DNA of 64,000 nt from Octopus sinensis (Eukaryota). Below are positions 3,095 to 41,441 of this stretch, piece by piece. The stretch lies in contig NC_043001.1 in NCBI RefSeq assembly GCF_006345805.1, positions 69,378,001 through 69,442,000 on the forward strand. Reading direction: 5' to 3'. The translations under genes and the position numbers were made by a program. The notes below the pieces were generated by a model. That model had not been told where the DNA came from, did not search any database, and was given only the letters and a program-made list of their open reading frames with translations. Position 1 is the first letter of the stretch. Every line of letters starts with the position of its first letter.

Positions 3095-3280
3095 AGGTTA
3101 TTTATATTATTTACATTATTTACAATTGACGGATATTTTCCCTCGTGTTTGTTGTTAACACAAAGTTTCGGCTGATATACCCTCCAGCCTTCATCGGGTG
3201 TCTTGGGGAAATTTCGAACCTGGGTTCTCATTACTAAGGTACTTTTCGATGTTGTTGTTGTTATTATTATTATCATTATT
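3095..3280 (-). repeat. HHR-bearing repeat, same family as the arms at 40645-41178
   Basis: Minus strand GACAC-CCGATGA-A-GGCTG-GAGGGTATAT-CAGCC-GAAAC-TTT-GTGTT, preceded by an (AAT/AAC)n tract. Confidence 0.75.
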
Positions 3281-4384
3281 GAGTGAGAGAGCAGAGGATG
3301 CCATTAAAGTGGCACTGAGGTAAACATACAAAGCCCAGAATACCCATTATGACTACTCGTCTGATAAGGGTACACTAGACTCATGCATCACAACCGTATG
3401 TATGCGACATGGTGATCTCATATAAAGATCCTATTAAAGAATGTCTAAACATTTGTACTGAAATCAATATATTTCTTAGCCGTCTCTTTAATTAATCGAG
3501 GGACAATTATCAAAACTCGAGTAAAATACGCTTAAATATTGTGCATATACATCTTATACAAGCTTCCAAGAGTAATGCAGACACAGAGATAACGGACAAC
3601 AATTTCATAATCAATCAGCTTTCTTTGGAGTATAAAGACAAAAGACAGAGCGGAATAAATTTTCATAATTTGCTCCAATCTCAAAGTGTATTTTTAAATA
3701 GGCTTATAATTTCCGTAATTGGCGAAACAAGATGACTGCCTACGGAAGTTCCAGAACTTTGTTTAATTAAAGAGAATATACTTATTTCAATATATGACAG
3801 AGCTATTGATTTAAGAATATAATCTGTTCGCGTAATTAAATCTATAACTGTGTCTGTATGTTAAACTATTTAAATATATGCCCACTTCCTTGTACCTAAT
3901 GCTACTTTGACATTATGCAAATGTCTACAAACATACGATTATATAAATATACAAATGTGTCGCCGATATTAATTCCCTCTCTATTTAGTAATGTATATTT
4001 ATGAAGCAATGATCGAGTTATATTAACGATTTCTTGAACGTTTTTATTTTCTGCTTTATTAATTGTAAATTACTTCGTTTTCAGAATTAATTCATATCGA
4101 GTAAAAACCCATGGGCATATCTTTGCCCCACCCCATGCGACCTAAAACACATGCACAGAACAACTATGACGTATTTATATCGAATGAACATGTAGTGTGC
4201 ATTTCATAACCTCTCGTTGACCCAGCATCGTTAGAGATAAATATAGCTGTGGCTGAGAGATTAATTAAAAGTAATCCTTCAGCATTTATTGATTAAATCT
4301 GTTTTCTTCCAATCTTAATATGTTTTTGTCTTTTTCGAGCAAAGCAAGAAATGGTAATAACGCGTGTCATTTTAGAGCTACTAC

Positions 4385-10243: not shown

Positions 10244-13200
10244 AGGTCGCTCTAGAGTGCTACTGGTAACATGTAAACCAGTACAACCTGTTGCATGGTC
10301 GGGACGTCGGCGACTAAACTGACAACCCCACCAGGTTCGCTTGGTGAGGAGGGTACTGTTGGGCTCCCTGTGGGATGGAAAAATAAGACCCAACAAAGGA
10401 CGGATGAACTCCTGAAGAGTCAACGGCCATCCAAAAATACCGGCCTGCCCGCCCAGCCAGTGGCATGGCGTCATCTTATGGCTAAAACAGCACGAAAAAC
10501 GAAGAGAAAAGGAAAAGGGCCTCAGTACCCTGCACGTCAATCGGGCCACTCCATGACGGCGGAGTGCAACTCGAGCGACGAGAGGCTGCTAAGAATCATA
10601 GGTTCCCGAAAGCCGTCATGGAACAGGACAAAACTTGCCATATGCACCTACAACTGCAGGTCTATGGCAGGGTGGCAAGAACTGAACCACCTAATGGAGG
10701 AGAGGAAGAAGATCAAGTGCGACGTGTTAGGGCTGTGCGAGATACGCTGGAAGAAGGAAGCGAGTATACGTTGGCAAGATGGATGCATTGTGAGATTATG
10801 AAGAGCAGAAGGTGCTAGATCGGTCGGAGGTATCGGATTCATCGTAAGTAAGGAATGGGCTTCGAGGGTCGCTTCTTGCCACTTCATATCATCACGGATT
10901 GGTGTACTAAATGCGAACCTCTCAGGGAAGGCCACCCTCAAGATTGTCCAGACCTATGCTCCCACAAGTGCCAGCGACGACGACGAGGTGGAAGAATTCT
11001 ATCGACAACTAGACAAAGGGTTGGCTATGAAGTCCACTTACACTGTCGTGATGGGAGACTTCAACGCAAAGGTTGGACATGGACGACAAGGAGAGGAGTA
11101 CGTCGGGAGATTTGGCATGGGATAGAGAAACGAGAGAGGAGAACGTTTGGCTACCATGGCAGCTCTACATCGGAAACAGCCTATTCAGGAAGAGGGAGAG
11201 GAAGAGATGGACTTGGATATCGCCGAACACTATGCACCGATGCGAGATCGACTACATCCTGGTTGATAAGCGACGCATATTGCATGACGTCTCCGTCGTG
11301 ACGCCATTCAACACCTGCAGCGATCATCGTCTGGTAAGGGCGAGGGTCGTCATCGACGAGAAGAGGGAGAAGATGGCGTTATATTTGTCGTCGAAGGGAA
11401 AACGTGTCCAAGTCTACAACGAGGTAAAGCTGCAGGAAGCCATTATGCAAGAAGACTGGTGCTAAGGAGACGATATAGACGATGACTACAACTCACTGAT
11501 AGGGAAACTTAAGGAGTGTTTAAGGAAGGCTAAGAGTGTATGCCCAAGAGAAAAGAAGGGAAGAATCTCGGAAGAAACTACGAAGTTACTCGAGAAGGGG
11601 AAAAATATGAAGAGGACTATTGAAGATCACCTTGAATATTCCATTCTCAGCAGAGTGATTCGTCAGCAACTAAAGAAAGACTTTGAGGCATACCGGATGG
11701 AGAAGGTCTTGAAGGCTGCAGAGGAAAAAAAGAGCCTCAAGAAATGCAAGATGGACATGGTACTATATAGATTGGAGGTGACGGCCCTGAAAAAAAAAAT
11801 ACTGATTGAATACCGGTCAACGAGAAGAGCGAAATGTCCAGCCGTTACCACCACTCCAACAGGAAGAAAACGTGCCACCTATCCTTGTCAGTGAGGTTGA
11901 AAGAGCCCTCGGCTCGATGAAAAACGGAAAGGCTCCAGGGAAAGACGGTATAACATCGGAGGTGCTAAAGTCAGGCAGAGAGCAGCTCTGGAAAATACTC
12001 GCTGAGCGATTTACGCACTATCTAAACGAGGGAAGAATTCTCTCGCAGTGGAAAGAGTGAAATACCATCCTGCCGTATAAGAAGGGCGACAGAGAAGATC
12101 TAAAGAACTACCGACCCATATGCCTGCTGTCTCACGTATACAAGCTGTTCACGAAGATAATTCTGAACAGGTTGTCACGTCGGCTCGACGAACAACAACC
12201 GAGGGAGCAAGCAGGCTTCCGGAAGATCTACAGCACAATAGACCATATATTTGCTCTAACGCAACTGCTTGAGCGAGCAAATGAGTACAAGCTGCCTCTT
12301 TGCGTTGCGTTTATAGATTATGAGAAGGCCTTCGATAGCGTCGAAACCAACGCAGTGCTGAACTCGCTGCAGAGGCAAGGAATCGAAGCACAATATGTGC
12401 AGCTGCTCAGAGAAGCAAATTCCGGATGCACCACCGACATAGCTCTACTGTCATCACCCATACGAGTGCCGGTCGAGAAGGGAGTGAAGCAAGGAGATAC
12501 AATCTCCCCAAAACTTTTCACTGCATGTCTCGAACAGATCATCAGAAGCATCGAATGGCAAGGTGGTGTCAATATCAATGGCGAGCTCCTCACTCACCTC
12601 CGTTTCGCTGACGACATCGTACTCATCGCTGAAAACATGGATCAGCTTCAGACCATGCTGACGGAGCTCGACATCAAAAGTTCTGCAGTAGGTCTCAAGA
12701 TGAACCGCATGAAAACAAGGTTCATGCGGTCAGACAACGTACCAACAGGTAGAATGGTGATCGGCAGTGATGAAATAGAGGAGGTGAGAGAATATGTCTA
12801 CCTGGGACAGGAAGTAAATATGTGCCGGGATATCAAAAAGGAGATCTCACAGAGAGTAAGGGCCGGATGGAAGGCGTTCAATGGCATAAGGGATGTGCTC
12901 AAGGGAAGGTTGACCACCCGCGCAAACCTCATTAACAGTGCAGTTCTGCTTGCAAAGTTATATGGTAGTGAAACATGGGCTACCACAAAGAGAGAAGAGC
13001 AAAGAGTGATAACGGCTCAAAGAGCCATGGAAAGGTCAATGCTTGGTATCTCGTTGAGAGAGCACATAAATAACAAGATCATCAGAAAGAAGTCCGGCGT
13101 GAGAGATGTCATCGCAGGGTATACTCGCAGTAAGTATAGATGGGCTGGACACGTCGTCCGGCTCACCGATAATCGGTGGGCGCACGCAATTGTCGAGTGG

Positions 13201-13383
13201 TACCCGCGTGAGCGGAAAAGACCACCCGGAAGACCTCCACGACGGTGGAGTGACGATTTCAAGAGGACGATTGGGATCACGTGGATGAGAAAGGCGCGAT
13301 CCAGAGAGGAGTGGATAGCGTGCTGTGACCAGCGGTGTCAAATGGACGCCTGACGGACTGGTCGGTCAAAGTGATCAAAGTGA
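10241..13383 (+). mobile_element. Near-full-length RTE-clade LINE (APE endonuclease + RT), inactivated
   Basis: APE motifs CTYNCRS, VLGLCEIR, YAPT, GDFNAK, IDYIL, SDH; RT motifs [33 protein letters not shown]; RTE C-terminus GRPPRRW; short GTGATCAAA repeat at the 3' end; (TA)n on both sides. Confidence 0.97.
12172..13353 (+). pseudogene. RTE reverse transcriptase domain, uninterrupted 393-codon segment
   Basis: Open frame with the RT motifs; upstream stops at 10799, 11124, 11463, 12058 and frameshifts near 11160 and 11790 break the single long ORF. Confidence 0.92.
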
Positions 13384-25179: not shown

Positions 25180-25190
25180 TATATAGAAGG

Positions 25191-25241
25191 AGCTTCTACA
25201 GGACTAGTACTGTTTCATTCAAGAGAAATCTTCAGGAAGCT
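25191..25241 (-). ncRNA. Type I hammerhead ribozyme motif, mirror copy
   Basis: Minus strand AGCTTC-CTGAAGA-TTTC(TCTT)GAAT-GAAA-CAG(TACTAGTC)CTG-TA-GAAGCT. Confidence 0.75.
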
Positions 25242-25287
25242 TCCTGAAGATTCTCTTGAATGAAACAGTACTAGTCCTGTAGAAGCT
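25238..25287 (+). ncRNA. Type I hammerhead ribozyme motif
   Basis: AGCTTC-CTGAAGA-TTC(TCTT)GAA-T-GAAA-CAG(TACTAGTC)CTG-TA-GAAGCT: 6-bp stem I, conserved core, ACAG/CTGT stem III, GUA triplet. Confidence 0.75.
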
Positions 25288-25607
25288 CCTTCTATATAAT
25301 AAATTAATTTTACTCTGCTATGTATTGAGTACCTTACTTACTGTGGTTAACCCCGGATCAACCGGGACCTACATATATATATATATAGAATATAGGATGA
25401 AAGTGAAATAGATATGTGTGTGTGCGTGTGTGCGCGCACAAACATATATATCTATGCTACTACTACTACTACTACTAACTACTACTACTACTACTAGTTC
25501 TTTTACATCCTTTATTTCATTGAAGTTACATGGTTTGTCAAGGACTTCACACGATAGATTTTGAAAGGGCCAACTGAATTTTTTATCGTATATAATTTGT
25601 TTTATTA

Positions 25608-35020: not shown

Positions 35021-35272
35021 ACGTTTAAAGTAAGGAACGCACACAAACTAATGTAGTGAATATTTTAGAAGTAGATGTGAAAGTGTTATTTTCACCTGAA
35101 GATCCCAGAGTATATTAGTCATGCAGAGGGTGAAATCATTTGGTATTGTAATACATGTTAGTTACTGATGTAGTTAACGCAAAGGTAAGCCTATTTCTAA
35201 TGTGTTCATTGCATTGCTGGTGTGAATCGTTATTGTGAGTTGATGGTGGTTTTGGAGCCTTGACTATATATA

Positions 35273-39288: not shown

Positions 39289-40644
39289 TGTGAGTGTGAG
39301 TTTGTGTAGGAAAATAGAGACATAGCTTTCAGTTATATTTCTGGAAAAAGTTATTTTAATGTAATGGTGTTCTAACAATATTATATTATTATATTTACTT
39401 GGAAGTTTCATTTTAATTACTGAAATTCAAACCTTAATACGTTTAATCTATGCGATTAAATTTAATTTGTAAATAACAGAATATAAAATCTATAATATTT
39501 CATTAAAGTTTTGAAGTAAATAATTGTATTTTCTTATCTATTTCTATCGTTGCTGCTCTGTTTTAATTAAGTGATATATCTACAGGAAAATATTTCCAAT
39601 TTATTACTAAATATGATTTCCATCTCCATCTCTGTCTCTGTCTCCTTCTGCAAAATCACTCTCTCAACCTCTTTTTAACTTCTTTCTCTCATTCCTACAA
39701 GGAACTTGCAAATAACTTCCAAATTACTATTCGATATTCACGTCTGTTGTTCTTTATATTATATATAACGCATTGTAACTACCAACATCTAAATACTAAC
39801 CGATACAGATACACGCACACGCACGCAAACATACACTCGCTTAGATCGTGTATGTATGTGTACCTGCATATGCTTGTATATATACAAACACACACGCGCA
39901 CACGTACATGCACACAAACACGCACACGCGCACACACACCACACACACATACACACAAACACACACATATGAAGAAAAGAAGAGTATTTCCATGCTGAAA
40001 ATAATATTGGTGAATCTGTTTGGGGATTTGAAGATGGATCTGAATCTCAAAACGTTTTTCAATTTTATATCAGATTCATGAAAACACCAAACCGGTTCCA
40101 GAATTTCTTGTTTATGAATGGTAAAATGCAAAAATAAATAAGGGATAGGGATTAGGAGAGGTAAAATTTACAAGTGAATATTCAGAAAAAAGTGCTTAAA
40201 TGATCAAATGTTCTTACAAATACCAGTGAGTTTCAGAGATAGACAGTAATACAAGTTAAAATATTCGGTGATGTTCATAAGTCATACATGATTGAAAAAC
40301 GAGTTTATCTTATACTTTTTAAAAAACCTTATCGTATCTAATTCTTAAACTAGTACAATACTACTAAACTGTCAATATGTGTGTGTGTATTTTAATGACC
40401 TGTAGGAACACCGTATTTCGTTATGCAACTATAGTACACTACGAAGTATATTAAACGGTTTTATAAGTCAATATCGTGTTCTACTCTGTTACCAGAGCTA
40501 TTACATTGCTTGTTAAGGTCATCTCTACAGATTTTCTATAGACGTTATAGTCAACACAGACTTTTTTATTGGCATATAAAAGCGTTTAATGTATTTTATT
40601 GTTCAGTTCTATATTTGAGTGATGAGGAATTATGTATATTATTT

Positions 40645-40808
40645 ACATTATTTACATTTCAGGGATATTTGTCATCTTGTTTGTTGTTAACTTGACGTTT
40701 CGGCTGATGTACTCTCCAGCCTTCATAAGGTGTCCTGGGGGAATTTCGAAACTGGGTTCTCATTCTTAAGGTATTTTTCCGATGTTGTTGTTGTTGTTAT
40801 TATTATTA

Positions 40809-40850
<42 letters not shown>

Positions 40851-40976
40851 TCACTGCCTGGAATCGAACTCGGGATCTTAACCACTACGCCATATGCTCG
40901 TGGGCATATGGCGTATTGGTCAAGAGCGCCGGCTACTAACCCCAATATTCCCAGTTCGATTCCAGGCAGTGACCTA

Positions 40977-41047
<71 letters not shown>

Positions 41048-41178
41048 CTTCGGAGAAATAAGAACCCAGGTTCGAAATTCCCCCGGGATACCTGATGAAG
41101 GCTGGAGAGTACATCAGCCGAAATGTTGTGTTAACAGCAAACAAAATGGGGACAAATCTCCGTCAAATGTAAATAACG
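40645..41178. mobile_element. Head-to-head pair of tRNA-like head + (AAT)n + HHR tail units
   Basis: Centre CATATGCTCGTGGGCATATG (40891-40910); A box 40909-40919, B box GTTCGATTCC 40954-40963; HHR at 41087-41132 (+) and about 40689-40734 (-). Confidence 0.85.
41087..41132 (+). ncRNA. Minimal type I hammerhead motif
   Basis: GATAC-CTGATGA-A-GGCTG(GAGAGTACAT)CAGCC-GAAA-TGTT-GTGTT; stem I GATAC/GTGTT; stem III has no loop (sister copy reads GAAACGT). Confidence 0.65.
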
Positions 41179-41441
41179 TATATTTTGCTGTTATATTATG
41201 ATTGCGGAATGAAATACGATGTCCTTACAGGTCTCTAATACTTACGTACCAGCTTCCAGCAATGTGTTTAATATATAGAATTGGTGTATCCATTAATGTG
41301 CAACTCTTATATTTAGTGGCTATTTAAGTAATAAGTTCTTGGATGCTTAATAGGTTCTGTTGTTTATATTAGGCGTCTCGGATACAAAACGACGTAGCAA
41401 AATCAGAGCTGGACATAATTTGTAAAGAAAATCTATCAATA

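Follow-up and report, generated by a model that had tools for sequence, protein, structure and literature searches.

Near position 40900 of the window, a 64,000-nucleotide stretch of Octopus sinensis DNA, two copies of one repeat unit run outward from a short palindrome (40895..40906, without strand) that covers positions -7 to +5 of a tRNA-like head. The palindrome is native to the element, and it is both the centre of the inversion and the modal 5' end of copies. The right arm, on the plus strand, consists of a tRNA-derived head (40902..40975; A box 40909-40919, B box 40954-40963), an (AAT)n/(AAC)n tract within the 3' UTR (40977..41048), a minimal type I hammerhead (41087..41132; core 41092-41098, extra A before helix II, GAAA 41120-41123) and a 3' end in the short form without extension (41133..41180). 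On the minus strand, the left, inverted arm has its head at 40847..40900 (A box 40882-40892, B box 40860-40869), its (AAT)n/(AAC)n tract at 40782..40846, its hammerhead at 40689..40734 and its 3' end at 40604..40688, the latter including, at 40604-40634, the Penelope 30-40-nt extension, here 31 nt long. Arms, boxes, tracts and hammerhead motifs were found where the original prediction had placed them. The left arm continues to 40604, beyond the limits first given, and the deletion between its A and B boxes, put at about 30 bp, measured 22 nt. A third copy had also been anticipated and is present; its limits were refined to 3106..3281 on the minus strand, where (AAT)n, a damaged hammerhead (3157-3202) and a 3' end, with no head, adjoin a different repeat at 3282-3429. 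As described beforehand, the three copies carry different core lesions, among them CUUAUGA in the left arm and C15.2 changed to U in the right. Over 124 nt the right tail is 85.5% identical to the left one (E 1.5e-36), and over 127 nt it is 84.3% identical to the third copy (E 7.6e-34); the next-best match within the window has an E value of 0.08. Rfam and ARAGORN detected neither a tRNA nor a hammerhead at the unit.

Other repeats share the window. The one at 3282-3429 (minus strand) belongs to a separate repeat of about 560 bp that also lies inside the (AAT)n of several copies of the family (L149, L156, L165, L240, L395); it ends in (AAT)n itself and gave nine matches in 6 of 60 unbiased stretches. 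At 2966-2995, 110 bp away from the third copy, lies an isolated 30-nt fragment of the Penelope 3' extension. Stop-free frames of retroelement-like character, 205-430 aa long, occur at 12061-13350 (plus strand), where the sequence is RT-like, and at 35263 and 42845 (minus strand count). A near-perfect long inverted repeat at 25187-25291 is possibly a MITE or fold-back element.

The suspected link to Penelope was borne out, as head and tail together form the 3' UTR of an autonomous element encoding RT and a GIY-YIG endonuclease. When loci were selected by the tail, the common sequence upstream of the head encoded RT and endonuclease motifs. When they were selected by RT (n=20), 15 reached the end of the ORF; the head follows in 13 of these 15, and the tail is reached in 10, in keeping with the 3' end of an autonomous Penelope-like element (PLE). 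Among loci selected by the ORF end, the head came after the stop codon in 28 of 29. The resulting order is ORF, stop, 29 nt, tRNA-like head, (AAT)n, hammerhead and tail, the head of long copies beginning 30 nt past the stop codon. From hammerhead to endonuclease, the commonest letters of 29 copies can be read as 829 aa without a stop, with ADKG and YVDD motifs and a Pfam RVT_1 match (E 1.5e-7). The GIY-YIG motif was read by eye and had no GIY-YIG match in Pfam; a relative, P0090, is named a GIY-YIG endonuclease by its source, and a protein labelled Octopus sinensis by its source (P0102) is 71% identical. No additional CX2-5CxxC finger was seen in the RT-EN linker. In tandem copies the tail passes directly into the ORF start, which is the partial tandem of PLEs (L127, L131, L139, L140), and a pseudo-LTR (pLTR) also precedes the ORF in most of 30 loci selected by the ORF start, four of which are copies of one duplication. 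Head and tail are consistently linked genome-wide, as predicted: a tail lies within 700 bp in 77 of the 81 arms that bear a head. The 30-40-nt 3' extension is carried by 24 of 52 tails. It is therefore secure that the feature is the 3' UTR/pLTR end of an autonomous PLE of Penelope/Poseidon type. The two arms in the window are a single insertion, 5'-truncated and folded back, their head-to-head form being the standard PLE 5' inversion.

The hammerhead proved to be of the minimal dimer type that had been proposed. The commonest letters over 52 genomic copies restore an intact minimal hammerhead whose ACGU is palindromic, in agreement with the predicted consensus, and helices I and II fold in a natural copy (L145). 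A type I hammerhead of PLE kind would also suit a non-LTR retrozyme spreading through circular RNA produced by double self-cleavage, and available text of a recent preprint proposes retrozymes as PLE derivatives (bioRxiv 10.64898/2026.07.22.740005). We regard this origin as highly improbable, because no tandem repeats with a hammerhead per unit were present among the loci examined (the sole tandems were PLE partial tandems), short copies are dispersed or inverted, their ends do not map to the cleavage site, and just 11 of 52 cores are intact. The expectation of frequent inverted or tandem arrangement held for inversion (48 of 81 tails have an inverted piece on their 5' side, none has one on its 3' side) but not for arrays of the short unit. 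The accessible passages of the retrozyme literature contained none on Pol III or octopus.

The tRNA origin of the head, also part of the original prediction, was supported by comparison with tRNA genes of the host itself. A profile of 21 heads matched tRNA-Arg(TCT) best (E 1e-4, z 11.5 against shuffles), an isotype that is tentative and weakly resolved given a comparison set of 27 host sequences from only six isotypes. Processing of the head by RNase P was ruled out by inspection, its acceptor stem being unpaired. In most copies, a two-codon upstream ORF (Met-Ala-stop) begins at +7 of the head; the right arm in the window has lost its stop (40908-40916).

A tRNA-derived head with A and B boxes is a trait of SINEs, and the feature had first been interpreted as an independent non-coding element borrowing PLE enzymes, in which Pol III would transcribe the short copies themselves as masters and the PLE protein would mobilise them in trans. 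Short copies do dominate. Seven sites were found in 80 evenly spaced 10-kb stretches (799,700 bases), which extrapolates to about 24,000 sites (9,600-49,000) in the 2.72-Gb genome; ORF sequence was present at none of the seven and inverted pairs at five. Many short copies also start at the promoter, with both boxes and no run of four T residues (T4). However, head and tail belong to the autonomous element, and master copies proper to a SINE were not encountered. No fixed difference separated 32 ORF-linked from 20 short (promoter-start) tails, three columns within the element reaching nominal P < 0.05, and divergence was similar in the two classes (6.0% vs 8.1%). In addition, the anole Poseidon template, according to the available part of PMC11167929, needs RNA to +172, past the RT starts at +111-118, and by analogy the short copies would lack an equivalent stretch. 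A true SINE is thus improbable, and short and ORF-linked copies are most simply explained as products of one master RNA. Copies are 6-8% off the commonest letter, with CpG sites as the most variable columns; judged from this sample, the family appears to have died out, or almost so.

The distribution of 5' ends points to a function of the head. Among 81 head-bearing arms, 24 end within the head, 42 at -17 to +9 and 15 further upstream. The pile-up just upstream of the A box thus takes 42 of 57 arms, at about ten times the flanking rate (0.051 ends per nt, vs 0.009 inside the head and 0.0045 further up; P ~1e-18), in a set of best matches to the tail rather than a random draw, where the two arms of one insertion are non-independent. 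The modal end at -7/-6 lies about 13 nt before the A box, where the start of a type 2 Pol III transcript is expected. Against it stands the unbiased sample, where only two of seven head arms end in the pile-up zone, five inside the head and none beyond. At L386, directly behind ORF sequence and after what appears to be a template jump, a unit begins exactly at -6, and the upstream pLTRs of L390 and L392 begin at +1 and -7. We consider the head a likely promoter.

The modal end also sits on the 12-nt palindrome, the exact centre of the inversion in the window, and fold-back alone could inflate the pile-up. In this alternative, the PLE would be driven by Pol II and carry a captured SINE or tRNA fragment as passenger in its 3' UTR, and the pile-up would mark a place at the palindrome where RT often stalls or the cDNA folds back. 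Inverted pieces do adjoin 26 of the 42 pile-up arms, some upstream pLTRs (L389, L393) reach past the head, and Penelope of D. virilis has an internal promoter resembling TATA-less LINE promoters, as available text of PMC2377424 describes. On the other hand, the palindrome is merely 4-5 bp, up to 16 of the 42 arms have no detected adjoining inversion, and the -6 start at L386 occurs without fold-back. The RNA data weigh against the Pol III reading and for this alternative. Three RNA-seq runs of one study yielded no RNA of Pol III type and no discrete start or end; the strands were near equal, and 73-78% of reads entered unlike flanks. RNA depth rises at the head, as does contig depth of run X16, a run of unrecorded kind, and 362 RNA reads carry the fold-back at -7, as in the window. 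These reads come from read-through of dead copies and are hardly informative about a short Pol III RNA. Taken together, the Pol II alternative appears rather unlikely, also in view of the intact boxes, the lack of T4 runs and a second lineage with the same layout, both considered below.

A separate kind of break was observed among the 30 ORF-start loci. Ten of them (L382, L384, L385, L386, L394, L399, L403, L404, L407, L408) stop 219-259 nt into the ORF (about 1720-1760, ORF-oriented), just past a 17-nt hairpin that repeats the motif of the palindrome, and nine of the ten pass directly into another pLTR piece. Template jumps may land there preferentially, or the break may mark another 3' end of the RNA.

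Commonest letters contain no sense-strand TTTT in 2,762 columns, for which three codon-aware null models give P values of 0.030, 0.027 and 0.004; these are modest values for a single lineage in which the absence was noticed post hoc. Twelve long copies have zero to two T4 runs each, vs 4-6 expected. There was no such depletion in other ORFs of the host (99 observed vs 87-89 expected) or in 80 related PLE ORFs from other hosts (326 vs 312).

The second lineage is L295, a PLE with 38% amino acid identity from a metagenome contig, whose 3' UTR carries exact A and B boxes, an AAT-rich spacer and a hammerhead, the boxes preceding the hammerhead (L295:2760-3060). Its 2,791-bp tandem units are 100% identical, and it was probably active recently. 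Rfam found no tRNA or hammerhead match in this UTR. L295 was the single positive among 29 segments tested (shuffle rate 3.4e-5 per segment), in a set where several segments are near-identical and some positions are estimated, and by a strict test that misses old copies, since only 4 of 21 decayed heads of the window's own family pass it. Its head differs in sequence from that of the window family, and the two were not sisters in a quick tree built without named reference PLEs. Two T4 runs early in the L295 ORF (2 vs 4.5 expected, P 0.12; no T5) weaken the case for full-length Pol III transcription there. Relatives with few T4 runs (L318, L320, L373, L303, L338) had no A/B boxes, and the viral contigs searched contained no relative. 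An intact tRNA-like sequence at L307 was rejected as a parallel head, as it lies upstream of a truncated PLE with a T5 behind it, is absent from the 3' UTR and is a separate element. L009, L101 and L118 are pieces of other PLE-like families of the host, with no tRNA-like head seen by eye in the 3' regions viewed. Animal-type PLE sequence in eight prokaryotic genome bins (L371-L378) is probably host contamination.

On balance, we favor a 5'-truncated and folded-back PLE pLTR in which the tRNA-derived head likely acted as a Pol III promoter and so fixed where the RNA began. Transcription by Pol III would start in the upstream pLTR of a tandem copy, around -6 and some 13 nt short of the A box, and RT would initiate internally at the tail, by analogy with anole Poseidon (as far as PMC11167929 describes it). 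If RT started at the first tail, only about 260 nt would be copied to the RNA 5' end, giving abundant short units in cis, while starts at the second tail would give ORF-bearing copies. A cDNA ending at -7 would terminate in the palindrome and could snap back and prime an inverted arm such as that in the window. It is possible, though doubtful, that Pol III transcribed the whole ORF. An equally tentative extension of the same reasoning is that some autonomous PLEs switched to Pol III at least twice (the window family and L295), with a captured tRNA promoter driving a terminator-free 2.7-kb coding RNA, being recopied at each insertion and yielding SINE-like short copies in cis. Pol III RNA is uncapped, and translation is therefore the main difficulty for this whole-ORF reading; past the hammerhead, the frame has no Met before residue 94, and a conserved stretch precedes that residue. 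For viral RNAs, the available text of PMC13725137 reports that ribozyme cleavage can start cap-independent translation.

Transcription of PLEs, regeneration of their promoter and formation of their inverted and tandem ends are largely open questions, and this family makes the steps testable, since it offers a likely internal promoter at a defined place, a sharp predicted start of the RNA and fossil products in the tens of thousands. If Pol III did read the whole ORF, this would be an autonomous protein-coding retrotransposon on a polymerase normally confined to short non-coding RNAs, with a possible role for the hammerhead in cap-independent translation. The family also suggests a route by which SINE-like repeats arise inside an autonomous element, and some annotated SINEs may thus be PLE ends. 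Our search of the available literature found no PLE with a tRNA-derived promoter and no account of a tRNA head in a pLTR, of the 5'-end pile-up, of the T4 lack or of a second PLE like L295; the family itself may be catalogued in repeat databases (Repbase, Dfam, SINEBase). Ohshima and Okada reportedly described tRNA-derived octopus SINEs named OK, OR1 and OR2 in 1994, one of which, compared by description only, may be the short unit under another name. In the text available from them, octopus repeat surveys name Penelope and SINE families without detail of a tRNA head (PMC13282606, PMC8967140), and the supplementary family lists of PMC13282606, PMC4209133 and PMC8557442 may be relevant to whether the family is new.

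Published descriptions of PLEs already include the hammerhead, the inversion and the 3' extension. Passages of PMC4209133 describe an extra nucleotide before helix II in minimal PLE hammerheads and ascribe opposite-strand pairs to truncated PLEs, those of PMC8557442 describe inverted 5' copies and a 30-40-nt tail, and those of PMC11167929 describe internal RT initiation and ATT cleavage in anole Poseidon. As far as these excerpts go, the window family resembles Penelope/Poseidon PLEs in its single ORF of RT and C-terminal GIY-YIG, its partial tandem pLTR, its inverted 5'-truncated copy (PMC4209133, PMC11167929, PMC8557442), its 30-40-nt extension at one end, a hammerhead that overlaps the ORF start and its ATT-rich targets. 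The hammerhead nucleotide between 9 and 10.1, the palindromic 15.2-16.2 and opposite-strand pairs 100-700 bp apart are further likenesses. Unlike the Penelope/Poseidon PLEs of those published passages, it has a tRNA-derived pLTR segment with A and B boxes, 5' ends concentrated there and no T4 run.

The Schistosoma repeat Sm-alpha has a Pol III promoter. It is likewise a short, dispersed, SINE-like repeat with a type I hammerhead, according to available text of PMC8490949, but the short unit described here can be shown to be the 3' terminus of an element that carries an ORF. The nearest analogue is TRIMp3 (Helenus, Ajax, Cassandra), in which, as accessible parts of PMC10886601 describe, a promoter of Pol III type derived from a small RNA lies in the terminal repeat of a retroelement, possibly by way of a SINE insertion. 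TRIMp3 are non-autonomous LTR elements without ORF or hammerhead, whereas the window family is an autonomous PLE.
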